DNA of 64,000 nt from Lachnospiraceae bacterium (GTDB lineage: Bacteria > Bacillota > Clostridia > Lachnospirales > Lachnospiraceae), in NCBI GenBank assembly GCA_015057055.1, contig SVFE01000001.1, forward strand, positions 23,944-87,943, read 5' to 3'. Below are positions 19,437 through 27,380 of the stretch, piece after piece (positions within the stretch are counted from its first letter, which is position 1; every line of letters starts with the position of its first letter). The notes beneath the pieces were generated by a model. That model saw nothing but the letters and a program-made list of their open reading frames with translations. It did not search any database and had not been told where the DNA came from. The position numbers were made by a program, and so were the translations under genes.

Positions 19437-20434
19437 TGAATAGAAAGAGAAAAGAACGTATCTTATATCCGCAGTGTGAAAATGGCATCTATAGGTATGA
19501 ATACGTAGAAATCGGCGGGATGAAACAATATATTCAAATAAGAGGCAAGGATAAAAGGAATCCGATATTGCTTTTTATCCATGGCGGTCCGGGTGGGTCC
19601 ATGGCCGGTTATGCTCATGTTATGCAGGATTTGTGGGAAGAAAAGTTTACCGTAGTAAATTGGGACCAGAGAAATACCTGTAAGACATACCTTGCAAATA
19701 AGGATAAATCCATGGAGATTGCTAAAACCGGCACCATGGAGGATTACATGGGGGATATCGACGAAATTATCAAATATCTTCATGGCATATACGAATTTGA
19801 AAAGATTATTTTGCTTGGATTTTCCTGGGGGTCTGTAATTGGCTCGGAATATGCAAAGAGGCATCCTGAAAACGTGTACTGTTATATAGGAGTGGGACAG
19901 CTTATCAACTACGCGGAAGGGTTCCGTGTGGTAGGAAAACAGGTGATAGAGCGTGCAGGGCAAAAGAAGAATAAAAAGGATATAGAAAAGATTCATAAAG
20001 TGCTTAATTCGATGCCGGATGGACCGTATATGACTGACGAGTTCATGAAACAGATACAGATTTTTGTCAGAATCAGCAACCAATATTTGTCAGAGAACAG
20101 TAGGAGTTTATCGTGGAAAGATTTTCTGACATCACCGCTTATGGATCGTAAGGCCAGAAAGGCTATGTATGTGCCTCATGAATTGCTGGCCGGGACATTT
20201 AAAACATTGTACGAATTTGATTTTCGAAATGATTTGAATTTTCCGGTACCGGTATATTTTATAACCGGTGAGGAGGATACCGCCTGTCCGCATAGTTTGC
20301 TTAAAGATATTGCAGATGACATCAATGCACCGAAGAAAAAGTTGTTTATTATGGAAAAAGCAGGGCATTGTTGCTTTTATGATAGAAAACAGGAGTTTTA
20401 CAAGCTTTTGCTGGATGTGAGCGATGAGAATTAA
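19436..20434 (+). CDS. Alpha/beta hydrolase, prolyl aminopeptidase (S33)-like
   Basis: HGGPGG oxyanion motif, WDQR, GFSWG nucleophile elbow, GEED and AGH triad positions. Confidence 0.85.
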   Translation: MNRKRKERILYPQCENGIYRYEYVEIGGMKQYIQIRGKDKRNPILLFIHGGPGGSMAGYAHVMQDLWEEKFTVVNWDQRNTCKTYLANKDKSMEIAKTGTMEDYMGDIDEIIKYLHGIYEFEKIILLGFSWGSVIGSEYAKRHPENVYCYIGVGQLINYAEGFRVVGKQVIERAGQKKNKKDIEKIHKVLNSMPDGPYMTDEFMKQIQIFVRISNQYLSENSRSLSWKDFLTSPLMDRKARKAMYVPHELLAGTFKTLYEFDFRNDLNFPVPVYFITGEEDTACPHSLLKDIADDINAPKKKLFIMEKAGHCCFYDRKQEFYKLLLDVSDEN

Positions 20435-20479
20435 GGGGAATGTACACATTCATTTCGATTTTTGGAAGGGATAAAGAGC

Positions 20480-20864
20480 ATGATTGATTTGAAAAATGGC
20501 AGAATTAGAATTGCGGATGATTTAATTATTTATCCGAATTATACATTTGATTTGTTTAAGAAAAGTTCTTTCTATACGAATCAGGATGGCGTTAGAATAA
20601 TAATTTTGGAGAAACAGCAAGTTATCGACGGGAATAAATATATGGCAATGCTTTTCTTTAGAAATAATATATATGTTGTCGCTGGTTTGCTGTGAAGAAC
20701 AGTATTCGGAAGAAAATGAAAAGGAAAGGAAAAAACTGCACGACCGTATACTGGAGAAATATGGTGTTATAGGGAAAGCGGAGTATGCATGGGGAACCGT
20801 TTCGTCAGAATATGACGGACGCAGCAATTGCTGTAGTATTAACTTTGTTTTTTATGGTGAATAA
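20480..20864 (+). pseudogene. Hypothetical gene split by a frameshift in an (AT)4 tract
   Basis: ORFs 20480-20695 and 20673-20864 overlap in different frames; adding one AT at 20667-20674 gives a continuous ...FRNNIYMLSLVCCEE... reading. Confidence 0.65.
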
Positions 20865-20911
20865 TAAGAGAAGCAAATTTTTAGACATCTTTTTATATCG
20901 CTGATAAACCG

Positions 20912-20941
20912 AGCCGATGGGGTTAATCTCATCGGCTTTTT
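20912..20941 (+). terminator. Intrinsic terminator
   Basis: AGCCGATGGG-GTTAAT-CTCATCGGCT then TTTT. Confidence 0.8.
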
Positions 20942-20945
20942 CCGA

Positions 20946-21008
20946 TTCACAACATAAAAAGGTTGTTTCACGCAAAAAAATGTAGCAAAGACACAGACCG
21001 GACGATAT
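20946..21008 (+). promoter_or_regulatory. LytTR-type direct repeats plus sigma28-like promoter (site 1)
   Basis: TTCACAAC (20946) and TTCACGCA (20967) start 21 bp apart; then TAG (20983-85), N16, ACGATAT (21002-08). Confidence 0.6.
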
Positions 21009-21049
21009 ACCTATTGGATAGTATGCTAGTATTTTTGAAAGGACCGGTG

Positions 21050-21643
21050 ATGTTTGTGTCTATGACAATCGGAAATAATATGGGAATCAGTAGTGGTTAC
21101 AAGGTAAGTAAAGCAGGTGGTTATAAAAATGTGCGGGAGTATTCCAATTACTTGTTGGGCAAATACAGTTGCCTGAAACCGGGAAGTAACGTGGCCGTGT
21201 CTGTTACATCAGGAATGCTAAGAAAAGCAATGAGTGATGAGAAAACCGGGCAATGGTTGGAGAGAGAACTTGCCAAAGCACCTGATTATATAAAAGAGGC
21301 ACAGCAGTCTGCCGGTGCTCGCGGGAGTAAACTGTTATCGGTTTCTATAGAGTTTGGAGAAGAGTATACAACTATGTGCACTCTGACAGTTACGGATACA
21401 CCGGGTACGGATGAAGATATTGATAAGTGGCTTGAGAGAGTTGAAGAGAACAGAGAAAAACAAAAGGCGACGGAAAAGAGGAACGAAAAAAGAAGTGCCG
21501 AGAAAAAACTGACAGAGCAGAGAATAGAAGAGTATACTTTCAAAGGACTGGATTTAAAGAGTGTTACCGACAGTTTTATTGCAAAGATGTCTTCGGTACG
21601 TTCTGTAATGCCCAAAGCGTCCGGATTTGACATGAAAGTATAA
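21050..21643 (+). CDS. Uncharacterised protein A, DUF6033-like, ends FDMKV
   Basis: YSNYLLGKY...LRKAMSDEKTGQWLERE aligns by eye with 23952 and 26607; K/E-rich coiled coil; no signal peptide; AAAGGA SD (21062 is an alternative start). Confidence 0.7.
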   Translation: MFVSMTIGNNMGISSGYKVSKAGGYKNVREYSNYLLGKYSCLKPGSNVAVSVTSGMLRKAMSDEKTGQWLERELAKAPDYIKEAQQSAGARGSKLLSVSIEFGEEYTTMCTLTVTDTPGTDEDIDKWLERVEENREKQKATEKRNEKRSAEKKLTEQRIEEYTFKGLDLKSVTDSFIAKMSSVRSVMPKASGFDMKV

Positions 21644-21672
21644 AAGAAATATGAATTGCAAAGGAAGATACC

Positions 21673-22380
21673 ATGCATATAGGAATTTGTGATGATGAAA
21701 AAAACATAAGGGAATTATTAGCCGGTAAAGTGACAAAGCAGTATCCGGATGCCGATATTATATTGTTTTCATCGGGGGAAGAACTACTTTTATCGGACAA
21801 ACAGATAGATATTCTATTTTTGGATATTCAAATGCAAGGTAGAAATGGGATGGAAGCGGCTAGGGAACTTCGTAAGAAGGACAAGGGGGTAATACTTGTT
21901 TTTGTGACCGGAGTGGAGGACTATGTCTTTCAGGCATTTGATGTAGGTGCTTTTCATTACATTGTGAAGCCGGTTGATGATGCGAAGTTTGAAGATGTAC
22001 TTTACAGGGCAGTGTCGGAAGTGAAATCTCAAAAAATGCACGAAAAAGAGCCGGAAGATAAATGTTTGATGATAAATAACGGCGGAGTACACATTAAAGT
22101 GATGATTGAGGATATTGTTTACGCGGAGATATTCAATCGAAAGATAGTTATTCATAAAACGGACGAGACAATTGAGTATTACGGGAAGATGTCTGATCTT
22201 GAAACGTTAGCAGGAGAGAACTTTTTCAGACCGCACAGGGCGTATCTCATCAATTTTAAGTATGTTGAAAAATACGATGCTTCTACAGTTTATCTGGAAA
22301 AAGGAAGTGTTCTTATGGCAAAAGGTAAATTCCCGGAGTTTGTCAAAAGATATATGAAGTATATTCAGCGGAAGGGATAA
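21673..22380 (+). CDS. LytTR-family response regulator (AgrA/VirR-like)
   Basis: Receiver ICDDE...LDIQM...VKP plus LytTR domain FFRPHRAYLIN. Confidence 0.93.
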   Translation: MHIGICDDEKNIRELLAGKVTKQYPDADIILFSSGEELLLSDKQIDILFLDIQMQGRNGMEAARELRKKDKGVILVFVTGVEDYVFQAFDVGAFHYIVKPVDDAKFEDVLYRAVSEVKSQKMHEKEPEDKCLMINNGGVHIKVMIEDIVYAEIFNRKIVIHKTDETIEYYGKMSDLETLAGENFFRPHRAYLINFKYVEKYDASTVYLEKGSVLMAKGKFPEFVKRYMKYIQRKG

Positions 22381-22385
22381 TATTT

Positions 22386-23753
22386 ATGAGTCATATGGAA
22401 ATGTACTGGGCGATAGCCAACCATTCAATATCTATAATTAACATTTTGGTGGAATGCTGGTTGTTTTACCGATTTGTGCAGCCGTTTATGAAAAAAGGGG
22501 CATATTACGCCGGATTAAGTTATTCGGCGACAATGCTGGTTTTTTATTGTGTTCCGCAGGAAATTTATTATCCGTATTTTTTCGCAATTCTTATAGCATG
22601 TGTTACGATGTGCTTGTTGGAAAGAAGAAATATTAAGCAGAAAGTATTTTTGGCAACATGTATGTATCTGTTTCGCTGGGTGGTCTATGGAGTAACATTG
22701 GTACTTAGAGATATACTGTTTGCCCTGTTTATTAATACGCCGTATATGTATACGAGACCGATAAAACAATTATGCGCATATATTGTTGTGGAGACGGTGT
22801 ATTACGCCGTGGCTTTATCGGTAATGTATCTGGTGATTCGATTGATTCACAAAGTGTATATAAATAAAAAAGATGACATTTCCGGTAAAGAATTGTTACT
22901 GCTTTATGCCACTCTGTTAACAGTAATGGTAGGCTATATTACTTTCAATTTCTTTTCTAAGGTATATCTGGAGGACATGGAAGTTTATATCTGGAATGTG
23001 CACCCGGGCTATACTTTTTTGCGGGTAATCTATCAGATTGTTTCGTTTGCGGCAATACTTATCGCTATTGTGATATACCAAAAGATAAAGGAAAAACAAC
23101 GTGAAGATAAGGTTAATATTTTATTGGCAGAGCAGCTGGAAAATACGAAACAGCGTATCAGTGAAGTAGAGAAATTGTACGGAGATATGCGTGCAATGAA
23201 ACATGATATGGGAAATCATATCTCGGTGTTGGAAAACCTAATTATGAAAAATGAAACCGAAGAGGTGGAAAAGTATTTATCCGAGTTAAAAGCATCTTGG
23301 AATGAGAACGGGACAGAAATAAAGACGGGCAATCCTGTCACGGATGTGGTTCTGGCGCAAAAGAGGAGAGAGGCAGAAGAAAAAGGAATCGGGTTTAAAT
23401 GTGAATTCGTTTATCCGACGGATACCAATATCAATGCTTTCGATGTCAGTGTGATTTTAAGCAATGCGCTGGAAAATGCTTTTGGAGGTGCAAGCGGCTG
23501 CGAAAATCCTTATGTTTTGATAAATGCGTATCGTAAGAAAAATGCGTATATGTTGGAAGTGAAAAACAGTATCCTTAAATCGGTAGAGATTGATGGTGAA
23601 ACCGGTTTGCCGGAAACAACGAAGGAAGATAAGGAAAGTCACGGTTTTGGACTTGCCAATATTCGCAAGGTGGCGCAGAAATATTACGGAGACATAGATA
23701 TCCATCAGGATGAAAACAGTTTTACATTGACGGTTATGTTGATGGTTGAATAA
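22386..23753 (+). CDS. AgrC/VirS-like membrane sensor histidine kinase (GHKL)
   Basis: About 7 N-terminal TM helices, H-box KHDMGNH, N-box SNALEN, G-box TTKEDKESHGFGL. Confidence 0.9.
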   Translation: MSHMEMYWAIANHSISIINILVECWLFYRFVQPFMKKGAYYAGLSYSATMLVFYCVPQEIYYPYFFAILIACVTMCLLERRNIKQKVFLATCMYLFRWVVYGVTLVLRDILFALFINTPYMYTRPIKQLCAYIVVETVYYAVALSVMYLVIRLIHKVYINKKDDISGKELLLLYATLLTVMVGYITFNFFSKVYLEDMEVYIWNVHPGYTFLRVIYQIVSFAAILIAIVIYQKIKEKQREDKVNILLAEQLENTKQRISEVEKLYGDMRAMKHDMGNHISVLENLIMKNETEEVEKYLSELKASWNENGTEIKTGNPVTDVVLAQKRREAEEKGIGFKCEFVYPTDTNINAFDVSVILSNALENAFGGASGCENPYVLINAYRKKNAYMLEVKNSILKSVEIDGETGLPETTKEDKESHGFGLANIRKVAQKYYGDIDIHQDENSFTLTVMLMVE

Positions 23754-23761
23754 GAAATATG

Positions 23762-23802
23762 AGACACAGTCTGTACAAAAAAGTGTGGATTGTGTCTTTT
23801 TT
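23762..23802 (+). terminator. Intrinsic terminator after the histidine kinase
   Basis: AGACACAGTCTGTAC-AAAAAA-GTGTGGATTGTGTCT (with G-U pairs) then a T run. Confidence 0.75.
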
Positions 23803-23808
23803 ATTTGC

Positions 23809-23883
23809 TTCACAACAGAAAAAGGTCGGTTCACAACAAGTCTATTTAGTATGAAGTTTACTATTCCGAAATAGGAAGTAGCA
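23809..23883 (+). promoter_or_regulatory. LytTR-type direct repeats plus sigma28-like promoter (site 2)
   Basis: TTCACAAC at 23809 and 23830 (21-bp period); TAG (23847-49), N16, CCGAAAT (23866-72); AAGTAGCA at 23876. Confidence 0.65.
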
Positions 23884-23951
23884 GAAGTGTTTGCATATGG
23901 AGAAACGGATTTCTGAACAAAAAGCAAGGAGGAAAACAAGGAGGTTTACCG

Positions 23952-24917
23952 ATGTCAATTATTTCGAATGTAAGTGGTAGTGGACTAAATGCTCAAAATG
24001 CACATAGGCTGAAAGATATCCAAAGGGCAGAAGGAGCAGAAGAAAATGCAAAAAAACGGATGGAAAGAAATCGTGAAAAAGAGGGTGTGAGTTACGAAAA
24101 AACGATTTCCGATTCTGTAACAGCAGGACTTGCGTTTATGCAGGGCTTGGAAAAACAGTTTGGCGGTACAAAGTTCTTTGTTGGAACAGTAAGTTATGGA
24201 CAGACTTATGGTAATTCTATGGATACGAATTTTGTGGTTAATCCCCAATTTCTTGATAAGTTGGGGACTGATGAAGCGGTCAGAAAACAGTTTGAAGAAG
24301 ACGTCAAATATCTGACAGATTTTTCTGAAAGGTTTCGAAAACAGCAACTTGCATCTGGGCGTGAGATTGTAAATCAGGGGTGGTTTTGTGATGAGAATGG
24401 TAATTGGGGTGGCTGGTCGGTTGGCCGACCAATCAATCAAAACTCTGTTTTGCAGGATATGACAGATAGTGCCGAGAAAATTCGGAAGGAAAAGTTTGTG
24501 GAGCGAGAAAAAGCGGAAGCAGAATTGAAAGAACATTTTGGAGACCGTTTCAAAGGATTTAGTGTGAAATGGGCAGAAGATGATAAAACCGGGGAATCGG
24601 AAGGAACAAAAGACAGGGAAGCTTCTTCCGATGAAGAAAGTGAGACCGTATCAGGTAAAGTTGGTGTAAATGTCGGCAAGACTGCAAGAAAAATTTCGGC
24701 GGCAAAGACAAAGGAACAGTTGCGGATGGTGATGGCTGAAATTAAAAGCGATGCCCAGGTCGTGAAAGCAGGAATTGAAAAGGGTTGGTGCGACGAGACA
24801 GAGTTGGACAAAGTGGAGATGCTTATGTCTATGGCGCAGAATCGCATGGGACAAGTGGAAGATAGAGAGGCAACGCCGGAAGAAGAGAGCATGTTTACTC
24901 TGGCTTCATTATTATAA
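23952..24917 (+). CDS. Uncharacterised protein B, DUF6033-like with an extra C-terminal helical domain
   Basis: FMQGLEKQF...NPQFLDKLGTDEAVRKQFEED...GWFCDENG core; AAGGAGG SD. Confidence 0.75.
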   Translation: MSIISNVSGSGLNAQNAHRLKDIQRAEGAEENAKKRMERNREKEGVSYEKTISDSVTAGLAFMQGLEKQFGGTKFFVGTVSYGQTYGNSMDTNFVVNPQFLDKLGTDEAVRKQFEEDVKYLTDFSERFRKQQLASGREIVNQGWFCDENGNWGGWSVGRPINQNSVLQDMTDSAEKIRKEKFVEREKAEAELKEHFGDRFKGFSVKWAEDDKTGESEGTKDREASSDEESETVSGKVGVNVGKTARKISAAKTKEQLRMVMAEIKSDAQVVKAGIEKGWCDETELDKVEMLMSMAQNRMGQVEDREATPEEESMFTLASLL

Positions 24918-24945
24918 TTTGATAGGAAAAAGGAGGATGTTTCGT

Positions 24946-25731
24946 ATGAAAATTAACGGTATAGACGGAATGAACACTTCAATCAAAGGGATGAATATGT
25001 TGCAATCAAATGATTCTGTCAGTAAAAATATTCAGAATAAAATTGCCAATGCGCAGAAACAGTTGCAGGATCTCTCTTCAAACAAAGAGATGAGTATTGA
25101 AGAAAAAATGAAAAAAAGACAGGAAATACAACAACAAATTGCAGATTTGAATAGCCAACTAAGACAACATCAAATCACCCAAAGAAAAGAGCAACAGGCA
25201 AAAGAAACTTCTATGAATGATATGCTTGGCGCAAGTAAGCAGACTGCTTCCGGAACAGGAAAACGAACCGCAGGTTTATCAAGGGCAAATATGAAAGCTA
25301 TGATTTCTGCGGATTCTGCAATGGCGCAGGCAAAGATACAAGGCAGCGTAGCGGGGCAAATGGAAGGTAAAGCCGGTGTATTGGAAACAGAAATCAAGTT
25401 GGACGCTGCCCGGGGAGTCGACGTGGAAAAAAAGAAAGAGGAACTGGCAGAAGTAGAACAGAAGGCAACTGCGGCAGAGACTGCGCAGCTGAGTACTTTA
25501 GCAGATGCCAATAAGGAACTGGAAGCGGCAACGAAGGAAGAACGGCAGACAAAGCGTGTCGACGAAAAGAATACGAAGGAAGAAAAGACAGAAAATAAGA
25601 TTAGTGTGGATGCTATTGATAATTCGGATGTTGACAATGTGATAAATGAAAATGGTACGGAAATGACAGAAACCGAGGAGCCTCTTTCAAAGGAAACAAC
25701 TTCGTCCGTGCATGTTGATGTTAGAGTATAG
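24946..25731 (+). CDS. FlxA-like coiled-coil protein C, ends VDVRV
   Basis: IQNKIANAQKQLQDLS...KMKKRQEIQQQIADLNSQL pattern typical of FlxA-like proteins; AGGAGG SD before ATG 24946. Confidence 0.7.
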   Translation: MKINGIDGMNTSIKGMNMLQSNDSVSKNIQNKIANAQKQLQDLSSNKEMSIEEKMKKRQEIQQQIADLNSQLRQHQITQRKEQQAKETSMNDMLGASKQTASGTGKRTAGLSRANMKAMISADSAMAQAKIQGSVAGQMEGKAGVLETEIKLDAARGVDVEKKKEELAEVEQKATAAETAQLSTLADANKELEAATKEERQTKRVDEKNTKEEKTENKISVDAIDNSDVDNVINENGTEMTETEEPLSKETTSSVHVDVRV

Positions 25732-25743
25732 GAGGAGATTGCG

Positions 25744-26493
25744 ATGGCAGGAATAAATAAATTTAATCAATATATGAATCTGTATAATTCAGAGGATTAT
25801 TCGTTGTTTTCGGGAGGTGCGCAGTTGCCGTCAATGAGCAGCTCCTATAGCCTTTCGGATTATGCTGCAATAAAGAACGGTAGTTATGGCAAAGCGTTAA
25901 AAGCGTATTATAAAAAAATGGATGCAGAGAAATTATCTTTCGGAGCAGATTCCGCACAAAAGAATTTGCTTATGAAATCCGGCGCCGATGCTTTGGAGAA
26001 ATCTGCGGAGGCTCTAAAAAAGGATACTCTTTGGGAGAAGAAGGAAACCCGGGAAAAAGATGAAGCAACGGGAGAAGAAACTGTAGTGCATGATTATGAC
26101 CGGGATGCTATTGCCAAAGCGGTAAAAACTTTTGTTGAGGATTATAATGATGCCGTGGAACAGGCCGGTGATTCCGATTCAAAAGAGGTATTAAGAAATG
26201 CAATGTGGATGACCGATACTACGGATGCAAACAAAAAGGTCCTTGCAAAAATCGGGATTGAAGTAGGAAAGGGAAATAAGCTGGAGTTGGATGAAGAAAC
26301 CCTCAGAAAGGCGGATATCGGCACGCTCAAAATGCTTTTTACAGGCTATAATTCTTTTGCAGATAAGGTATCCATGAAAGCAAGAAGTATTTCTGCTGCA
26401 TCATCAAAGGCCGGCGTTACTTATACGAGTGACGGAAAGTATAATGACGTAGTGTCGAAACTTGTATCAAAGAAAGTGAACAAAGAAGTATAA
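25744..26493 (+). CDS. Uncharacterised protein D resembling the FliD C-terminal domain
   Basis: AVKTFVEDYN...LAKIGIEV...LELDEETL...LKMLFTG resembles FliD_C; GGAGGAG SD. Confidence 0.6.
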   Translation: MAGINKFNQYMNLYNSEDYSLFSGGAQLPSMSSSYSLSDYAAIKNGSYGKALKAYYKKMDAEKLSFGADSAQKNLLMKSGADALEKSAEALKKDTLWEKKETREKDEATGEETVVHDYDRDAIAKAVKTFVEDYNDAVEQAGDSDSKEVLRNAMWMTDTTDANKKVLAKIGIEVGKGNKLELDEETLRKADIGTLKMLFTGYNSFADKVSMKARSISAASSKAGVTYTSDGKYNDVVSKLVSKKVNKEV

Positions 26494-26519: not shown

Positions 26520-26558
26520 TAATATTTGAGGACAAATATGCCGATATACAAAGTAGCA
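26520..26558 (+). promoter_or_regulatory. sigma28 (SigD/FliA)-like promoter (site 3)
   Basis: TAAT (26520-23), N16, GCCGATAT (26540-47), a perfect SigD -10; AAGTAGCA at 26551. Confidence 0.7.
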
Positions 26559-26606: not shown

Positions 26607-27380
26607 ATGGATGTTGGTATAATGAATAGCAGTATTCATGCATCGTCAGAGGCATATGCTGCGAAAGAAGCAAAGCAAACGAAAGAGACAAAGCCGGCGA
26701 AAGAAAACAAACCTACCGAGGAAGTTAAAAAATACGGTGTTTCCGGTAGGACAGTAGGGCAACCGAAACTTAGTGAAAATGCAAAGAAGTATTATGAGGA
26801 ATTAAAGTCTAAATTTCAAAATATGGATTTTATTCTGGTGAGCAAGGATATGAAGGAAATGGCCAAAGCGAATGCCGGAAGTTTTGCTAATCCTCATAAA
26901 ATGGTTGTTTTGATTGACGAAGAAAAAATTGAACGTATGGCGACGGACGAGCAGTATCGCAAGCAATACGAAGGCATTATTGCTTCCGCGGGAAACAAAT
27001 TACCGCAGCTACAAAAAACGCTGGAAAAATCCGGGAAGGTGAAAGCCTTCGGCATGCAGATTAATGACAATGGAGCAGCTTCGTTTTTTGCCGTGATGGA
27101 TAACGCATTTAAGTCCCAGGCCAAACGATTGGAAAAACAAAGAGCCGAGAAAAAAGAAGAAAAGAAAGCGGCAGAGAAAAAAGCGGAGAAAGCAAAACGG
27201 GAGGAACAACTTAAGGAGAAACGCCTTTCGAAAGGCGAAGAATCGGAAACGGTAATATATGCAGATTCGTTCGAAGAGTTAAAACTGAAAGTAGAGGATT
27301 ATATTTTTGAACATATGGCGGACACCGTAAAGACGGATTCTGAAAGATATCTTGGAACGCATATCGATTTCAAGGGTTAG
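26607..27380 (+). CDS. Uncharacterised protein E, DUF6033-like, ends IDFKG
   Basis: YYEELKSKF...IDEEKIERMATDEQYRKQYEG...FGMQINDNG core plus K/E/A coiled coil. Confidence 0.75.
   Translation: MDVGIMNSSIHASSEAYAAKEAKQTKETKPAKENKPTEEVKKYGVSGRTVGQPKLSENAKKYYEELKSKFQNMDFILVSKDMKEMAKANAGSFANPHKMVVLIDEEKIERMATDEQYRKQYEGIIASAGNKLPQLQKTLEKSGKVKAFGMQINDNGAASFFAVMDNAFKSQAKRLEKQRAEKKEEKKAAEKKAEKAKREEQLKEKRLSKGEESETVIYADSFEELKLKVEDYIFEHMADTVKTDSERYLGTHIDFKG

Follow-up and report, generated by a model that had tools for sequence, protein, structure and literature searches.

The window analysed here, a 64,000-nucleotide stretch of a Lachnospiraceae MAG, carries on its forward strand two adjacent groups of genes, each headed by a copy of the same direct repeat (Table 1). 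The first group consists of gene A, for which GTG 21056 and ATG 21062 are alternative starts (RBS GAAAGGA at 21037-43), a response regulator and a histidine kinase. A preliminary description of this DNA had taken the gene at 21673 for a LytTR-type regulator with its kinase downstream, and the Pfam matches bear this out: the regulator joins a REC to a LytTR domain (the latter with E 2.7e-14 and 53.6 bits against a cut-off of 22.6) and has ComE (4cbv, 3e-10) and the AgrA LytTR domain (3bs1, 2e-5) as its best solved relatives, and the kinase is of the AgrC-type GHKL kind, with about six TM helices in residues 1-230 as judged by hydropathy and an H-box reading MKHDMGNH (His273). The gaps between these genes, 29 nt from the stop of gene A to the ATG of the regulator and 5 nt from the regulator stop to the ATG of the kinase, come out of the gene coordinates as originally described. 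The second group, which we refer to as the target operon, spans 23952 to 26493, and the same gene families lie behind the corresponding repeat in relatives. DUF6033, FlxA-like and FliD_C-like proteins, a hydrolase and housekeeping genes make up the neighbouring ORFs, and the cluster encodes no second DNA-binding protein besides the regulator.

Several further features of the coding and leader regions were observed. Two short ORFs just upstream of the first terminator (20462-20695 and 20673-20864) overlap out of frame, have no Pfam match and may together represent a frameshifted gene. Dissimilar target proteins end in a common tail, hydrophobic-D-hydrophobic-x-V/I (FDMKV, VDVRV, IDFKG, LDLKV, FDFSV, FDLSI, IDILV), which is encoded in the window at 21623-21643, 25711-25731 and 27360-27380 and in relatives by ORFs of L088 (2910-3632, 3814-4539, 4575-5165), L054 (810-1538) and L160 (3332-4042), and which may be a common recognition tag. 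The 5' leader of the target operon (23880-23951; SD AAGGAGG) contains a conserved small hairpin with GGA in its loop, GAGAAACGGATTTCTGAAC at about 23900-23918, that recurs in the distant loci L030, L034 and L041. Its fold energy is not significant by itself (z -0.5), and it is similar to the sites at which CsrA binds the hag leader of B. subtilis.

Table 1. Features of the A-regulator-kinase and target-operon region (window positions; operators and promoter elements are predictions).
Feature	Position	Strand	Description
Intrinsic terminator, upstream unit	20911-20941	+	11-bp stem, 6-nt loop, U-run
Candidate operator 1 (site 1)	20946-20975	+	30 bp; 20946-20974 reads TTCACAACATAAAAAGGTTGTTTCACGCA
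Distal half-site, operator 1	20946-20954	+	TTCACAACA; consensus TTcACAACA from 61 orthologous sites
Spacer, operator 1	20955-20966	+	12 bp, TAAAAAGGTTGT; conserved A-tract nAAAAAgG.CG.
Proximal half-site, operator 1	20967-20975	+	TTCACGCAA; 7/9 against consensus TTCACAaCA
Predicted -35, site 1	20981-20984	+	weak TGTA, 5 bp behind proximal half-site; inferred from conserved-block position
Predicted sigma-28-type -10, site 1	21001-21008	+	GACGATAT; ACGATAT at 21002-08
Gene A	21050-21643	+	first gene of unit; weak DUF6033 member, PF19498, E 3.7e-9, 37 bits (cut-off 25)
Response regulator	21673-22380	+	REC PF00072, E 8e-17; LytTR PF04397
AgrC-like histidine kinase	22386-23753	+	GHKL ATPase; HATPase_c_5 PF14501, E 5.6e-24
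Intrinsic terminator, end of A-regulator-kinase unit	23761-23803	+	16-bp stem
Candidate operator 2 (site 2)	23809-23838	+	TTCACAACA-gaaaaaggtcgg-TTCACAACA; perfect 9-bp direct repeat, 12-bp spacer
Predicted target-operon promoter, site 2	23845-23872	+	-35-like TTTA 23845-48; -10 TCCGAAAT 23865-72
DUF6033 protein, target operon	23952-24917	+	PF19498, E 1e-8
FlxA-like protein, target operon	24946-25731	+	PF14282, E 3e-16
FliD_C-like protein, target operon	25744-26493	+	PF07195, E 4e-8

The preliminary description had pointed to two TTCAC half-sites 21 bp apart directly behind a terminator. We find them at 20946-20950 and 20967-20971, with a start-to-start period of 21 bp, and the repeat begins 5 nt past the terminator hairpin (20911-20938; dG -17.9 kcal/mol, z -4.11, matched by none of 200 shuffles) and its U-run. 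This terminator would insulate the site 1 promoter against transcription from upstream. The bare TTCAC pair is weakly significant in itself: TTCAC-N16-TTCAC is expected 0.31 times per window, so that a single occurrence means little, and it was seen twice, with at least two matches in 3 of 100 shuffles. The only further match in the window, TTCACAACAGAAAAAGGTCGGTTCAC at 23809-23834, is identical to site 1 at 23 of the 26 positions and shows the true repeat unit to be 9 bp, TTCACAACA, with a 12-bp spacer, rather than the 5-bp TTCAC. With 12 bp between them, the two 9-bp half-sites face the same side of the helix. At site 1 the proximal half-site is a degenerate copy, and its variant TTCACGCA recurs in the gene-A-type promoters of relatives (L054, L088, L073 and L045).

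With up to three mismatches allowed, the 26-mer consensus is expected 0.00 times in the window and matches solely at site 1 and site 2. Recent duplication as the origin of the two copies is ruled out by their unrelated flanks (17/60 identical on the 5' side, 13/54 on the 3' side), and the 26-mer is therefore a conserved element and not part of a duplicated stretch. Both copies lie on the + strand ahead of protein-coding genes, and site 2, like site 1, stands a few bases behind a terminator (hairpin 23761-23798; dG -18.6 kcal/mol, z -4.9) and ahead of an operon. Its counterpart is kept behind the kinase gene in 35 orthologous loci.

We gathered 49 loci (L001, the window, to L049) from species-representative genomes via the regulator protein alone. 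A lack of conservation upstream of orthologues had been named in advance as evidence against a role for the motif; it proved instead to be conserved there, at a fixed place on the coding strand, down to about 44% regulator identity. In 44 of these loci (L002-L045, thus excluding the window and four loci at 33% identity or below) every 5-mer that recurred 12 to 30 bp away was counted in the 230 bp upstream of the regulator. The top same-word pairs all recurred at exactly 21 bp, with CAACA found in 18 loci, ACAAC in 17 and TTCAC in 8, against a shuffle maximum of 3, and the region behind the kinase gene yielded the same repeated words. A PWM scan placed coding-strand sites in most of L001-L045, at about -99 nt relative to the regulator ATG and again +2.1 to +2.3 kb from it (26 sites scoring at least 20 upstream of the regulator and 35 just behind the kinase), and found none in L046-L049, whose regulators share no more than 33% identity with that of the window. 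Across 61 anchored sites five blocks are conserved, TTcACAACA, AAAAAgG.CG, TTCACAaCA, TTtAgT and either tCCGATAT (regulator promoters) or tCCGAAA (target promoters); the DNA between them is unconserved and the intergenic DNA of these species is otherwise unalignable. Conservation at spacer positions 10-16 is almost as high as in the half-sites.

Such conservation of the spacer, seen at 20955-20966, at 23818-23829 and in all orthologous sites, is unusual for LytTR operators, and the paralogue clade described below likewise retains AAAA directly behind the distal half-site. The conserved A-tract may provide a bend or an extra contact.

The A-regulator-kinase operon of the preliminary description is present in the window as a layout, but it is specific to this lineage. 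In most relatives regulator and kinase have a repeat of their own about 99 nt upstream, and any gene A forms a unit of its own ahead of it, its orthologues in L088, L139 and L152 ending before the regulator's repeat. The window and its closest relatives (L002 and L045) lack a separate promoter for the regulator; gene A directly adjoins the regulator gene, all that is left of the regulator upstream region is the conserved RBS region GAATTGCAAAGGAAG, and the sole repeat of the three-gene unit lies ahead of gene A. Given the missing promoter and this single repeat, the three-gene operon would be a derived arrangement. Comparison of these loci suggests that the regulator's promoter was lost in this lineage and that the promoter of gene A drives all three genes, autoregulation itself probably being ancestral. 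The 3' part of gene A also contains a sigma-70-like sequence, CTGACA-18-TATACT (21509-21538; 10/12), about 135 nt upstream of the regulator, which could give basal expression of regulator and kinase after loss of their own promoter.

A -35 element just past the repeat had been predicted previously, and conservation would place one there too, but the promoter looks sigma-28-type, with an ACGATAT -10, instead of sigma-70. A sigma-70 scan of 20400-24200 gave no candidate between the repeat and gene A. In relatives a conserved TTtA/TAAA block stands 10-14 nt past the second TTCAC, to which the TGTA of site 1 corresponds in position, and the invariant tCCGATAT/CCGAAA block starts 31 nt past the second TTCAC in 46/61 sites (1 nt closer at site 1). 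At the offsets of the site 2 promoter, TTtAgT and CCGAAA are nearly invariant in relatives. The gap from the repeats to the predicted -35 is 5-6 bp, the promoter elements being predicted from conservation only.

The site 1 -10 fits the sigma-28 -10 (CCGATAT or MCGATAa), as does CCGAAAT at 23866-72 with one mismatch. Sigma-28 promoters carry TAAA as their -35; this element, at 15-17 nt before the -10, is absent from the two window promoters (TGTA, TTTA), and TAAAG is present in the gene-A-type promoters of relatives. The sigma-28 promoters of Butyrivibrio fibrisolvens read TAAA-N16-17-MCGATAa and the fliC flagellin promoters of Roseburia and E. eligens taaa-N16-ccgatat, and the cultured carriers E. 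eligens and Roseburia possess the flgB-fliA locus (PMC3720852). Many regulator promoters read CCGATATAAT, which also includes TATAAT, and a plain T/CTATAAT takes the -10 place in the regulator promoter of Pseudobutyrivibrio and Butyrivibrio, whose target promoter retains TCGATAG. Some regulator promoters may be read by sigma-A, and since the repeat is kept where the -10 is TATAAT, the operator would be independent of the sigma factor used. For the window promoters sigma-28 would be the better reading because CGATATACC at site 1 and CCGAAATAGG at site 2 are poor sigma-A -10s, an assignment that is uncertain. The TAGTAT sequences at 21019 and 21027 (TGCTAGTAT) were considered as an alternative -10 and are less likely than the conserved CGATAT box, since they have no -35 and lie 47 nt from the repeat. 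When mapped to L105, RNA-seq contigs from Lachnospira eligens relatives either cross both repeats or break at uninformative places; they resolve no transcription start and may contain DNA.

A third, near-consensus sigma-28 promoter in the window (TAAT-N16-GCCGATAT, 26520-26547) precedes a strong DUF6033 gene at 26607-27380. It has no upstream repeat, and that part of the cluster would therefore need sigma-28 only.

Some relatives carry a second LytTR pair, whose regulator is 37% identical to that of the window. Its half-sites are of the type TTCACACCC compared to TTCACAACA in the window's clade. Upstream of the paralogue we find TTTCACACCC-N11-TTTCACACCC, with the same 21-bp period, followed by ACGATATAAT, and the paralogue operator, TTCACACC[CA]-N12-TTCACACC[CA], occupies the same place as that of the window's clade (L107 4590-4655, - strand; L169-L248). 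We retrieved 80 loci of the paralogue clade, 75 of them with upstream sequence. The AACA type was found in 25/44 loci of the window's clade and 0/75 of the paralogue clade, and the ACCC type in 0/44 and 33/75, respectively. With no cross-occurrence, the half-site variant tracks the regulator clade, as expected if each regulator reads its own operator. The link between regulator and motif, drawn from synteny and this clade-specific covariation and with the regulator as the sole transcription factor of the cluster, is strong but indirect. The paralogous system, which occurs in many Lachnospiraceae, also adjoins DUF6033-type genes, and the two systems lie side by side in L088, L107 and L158.

Using the 22-base pattern TTCACAACANAAAAAGGTNNNTTCAC in a complete scan of 185,579 species' genomes, we identified 92 sites in 81 stretches, all of them in Clostridia-type records. 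A regulator orthologue follows within 60-450 nt in 42 of the 92, and 33 are upstream of a DUF6033, FlxA-like or FliD_C-like gene; 13 fall at a contig end and 4 are unassigned, one of these being ahead of a K/E-rich protein whose C-terminus is of the same kind. In other words, of the 79 exact matches that could be assessed, 75 have a regulator orthologue or a gene of these three families downstream. In the window's own assembly the two window sites are the only matches to the pattern. Among the cultured carriers are Lachnospira eligens, L. hominis, Roseburia inulinivorans, R. faecis, R. amylophila, Butyrivibrio fibrisolvens 16/4 and Pseudobutyrivibrio species. Matches to a looser 19-base pattern in Bacteroidota and other phyla were rejected as background, as they lack the CCGA box and the neighbour genes and are gone with the 22-base pattern.

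We suggest, with a probability of about 0.8, that 20946-20975 is the operator through which the LytTR regulator encoded 0.7 kb downstream activates its own operon. A dimer of the regulator, phosphorylated in response to a signal presumably received by the kinase, would bind both half-sites. Since the operator ends 5 bp before the -35 and the -10 lies at 21001-08, the centres of the half-sites would fall near -45 and -66 relative to a predicted start at about 21015, which is probably an activator position, and from there the regulator would recruit RNA polymerase, probably the sigma-28 (FliA/SigD) holoenzyme. Transcription of gene A, regulator and kinase as one unit would then give positive feedback, and operator 2, the better copy, would put the DUF6033/FlxA-like/FliD_C-like operon under the same control.

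An unlikely variant of this reading is that the regulator does bind the repeat but with a negative or neutral outcome, such as auto-repression, roadblocking or tethering. The gene-A-type promoters of some relatives (L054, L088 and L158) lend it some weight, as they pair the repeat with a near-consensus sigma-28 promoter, TAAAG-N16-GCCGATGT, which should need no activator. The -35 elements of the window are poor, however, and the whole of each site precedes the -35, with constant phasing (31 nt in 46/61), as for class I activators and in the same upstream position as all characterised LytTR autoregulatory repeats. It is also very unlikely that the block is read by something else, either as an extended element of an alternative-sigma holoenzyme or by a distant regulator, and was co-inherited with the cassette. 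Both sites are always within the same cluster, so synteny alone cannot tell a site of the regulator from a part of the cassette, and the A-tract in the spacer is conserved like the half-sites, as is unusual for LytTR operators. Yet the repeat persists when the -10 shifts from CCGATAT to TATAAT, and is hence not bound to one sigma factor; the 31 nt from the second TTCAC to the -10 exceed the distance within a -35/-10 pair; each regulator clade has its own half-site variant; and no further DNA-binding protein is encoded in the cluster.

That the repeat has no regulatory role, being a chance match, the remnant of a promoter cassette that was once duplicated, or a piece of an RNA hairpin, is highly improbable. 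The bare TTCAC pair would be compatible with chance, and site 1 does contain a small inverted repeat, ACAAC...GTTGT. Against this, the 26-mer consensus is expected 0.00 times and is conserved across species in which the surrounding intergenic DNA cannot be aligned. We rejected the RNA hairpin within site 1, which is weak (dG -3.7 kcal/mol, z -1.4) and unconserved, its arms not being complementary in other sites (GGTCGG).

Beyond the activation of its own operon by the regulator, we tentatively entertain a broader and rather doubtful idea, namely that these sites define a class of activator-dependent sigma-28 promoters, in which a LytTR system gates late-flagellar-type transcription of putative flagellar-export substrates (DUF6033, FlxA-like, FliD_C-like) in motile gut and rumen Lachnospiraceae, and in which paralogous pairs separated by half-site positions 6-9 (AACA versus ACCC) form parallel channels onto the same protein family. 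Our literature search found nothing relevant on DUF6033, nor on LytTR with sigma-28, FliA or flagella, and no publication on this two-component system. To our knowledge, few LytTR operator-regulator pairs are known. The present one would provide a base-resolution operator and a minimal regulon for a two-component system found widely among abundant, motile commensals of the gut, including Lachnospira eligens, Roseburia and Butyrivibrio. With targets of flagellar signature and sigma-28-type promoters, the site is a handle for asking what the targets do and which signal the orphan AgrC-like kinase receives, and the AACA/ACCC split between paralogous regulators is a ready system for studies of LytTR specificity.

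The LytTR half-site consensus is [TA][AC][CA]GTTN[AG][TG], with a GTT core, and neither TTCACAACA nor its complement TGTTGTGAA has this core in register on the repeat strand. LytTR operators are otherwise recognised as direct repeats of about 9 bp that are 11-13 bp apart, an architecture seen in TTCACAACA-N12-TTCACAACA at site 2 and in the 21-bp pairs of orthologous loci. The AgrA half-site of S. aureus, ACAGTTAAG, also differs from TTCACAACA. Divergence from the consensus has been documented for other LytTR operators, whose repeats, 12 bp apart and 4-11 bp from the -35 on its upstream side, mediate direct positive autoregulation (PMC6193735), and the AgrA repeats lie immediately upstream of P2 and P3 (PMC4227749).

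The S. aureus agr P2/P3 system shares with this locus a LytTR regulator paired with a multi-TM GHKL kinase of the AgrC type. In both, a poor-core promoter is preceded by two direct repeats of 9 bp spaced by 12 bp, and, as predicted here, one copy would serve the regulator-kinase operon (feedback) and a second an output unit. The likeness to agr P2 drawn in the preliminary description holds for autoregulation alone, and does not extend to agrB and agrD or to a divergent P3-like unit. The agr promoters are back to back, whereas the two here are co-directional and 2.9 kb apart, and divergent promoters with a regulatory RNA output are not seen at the locus. The agrB, agrD and RNAIII genes of S. 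aureus are absent here, with neither agrB nor agrD among the neighbouring ORFs and, given the gaps of 29 and 5 nt, no room for them in the operon. Finally, agr uses sigma-A promoters compared to the sigma-28-type appearance here, where the output consists of uncharacterised flagellum-like proteins.

The VirR box of C. perfringens is about 12 bp long, with a CCAGTT core and ends reading ...TTCAC or ...TGCAC, and it serves genes for toxins and regulatory RNAs that have sigma-A promoters. VirS/VirR thus resembles the present system in its clostridial LytTR regulator and in a pair of imperfect direct repeats, spaced by about two turns of the helix, just before the -35, and differs in the length and core of the box from the 9-bp half-site here. 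The boxes of S. mutans HdrR/BrsR and of S. pneumoniae ComE, the latter being the closest solved relative of the regulator (4cbv), are direct repeats 12 bp apart that lie 4-11 bp before the -35 and give direct positive autoregulation (PMC6193735), an arrangement predicted here too, but their repeat sequence differs, peptide pheromone and exporter genes are not present here, and HdrR and BrsR have no receiver domain and are under the control of a membrane inhibitor, in contrast to the classical kinase-regulator pair of this locus. The sigma-28 flagellin promoters of Butyrivibrio, Roseburia and Eubacterium eligens have the -10 in common with it (MCGATAa/CCGATAT), with their -35 lying 16-17 nt upstream (PMC3720852); classical sigma-28 promoters need no activator, whereas here a degenerate -35 is abutted by an activator-type operator. 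The element would appear to be a further LytTR direct-repeat operator, of which the coupling to a sigma-28-type promoter and to flagellum-like targets is apparently the unusual part.
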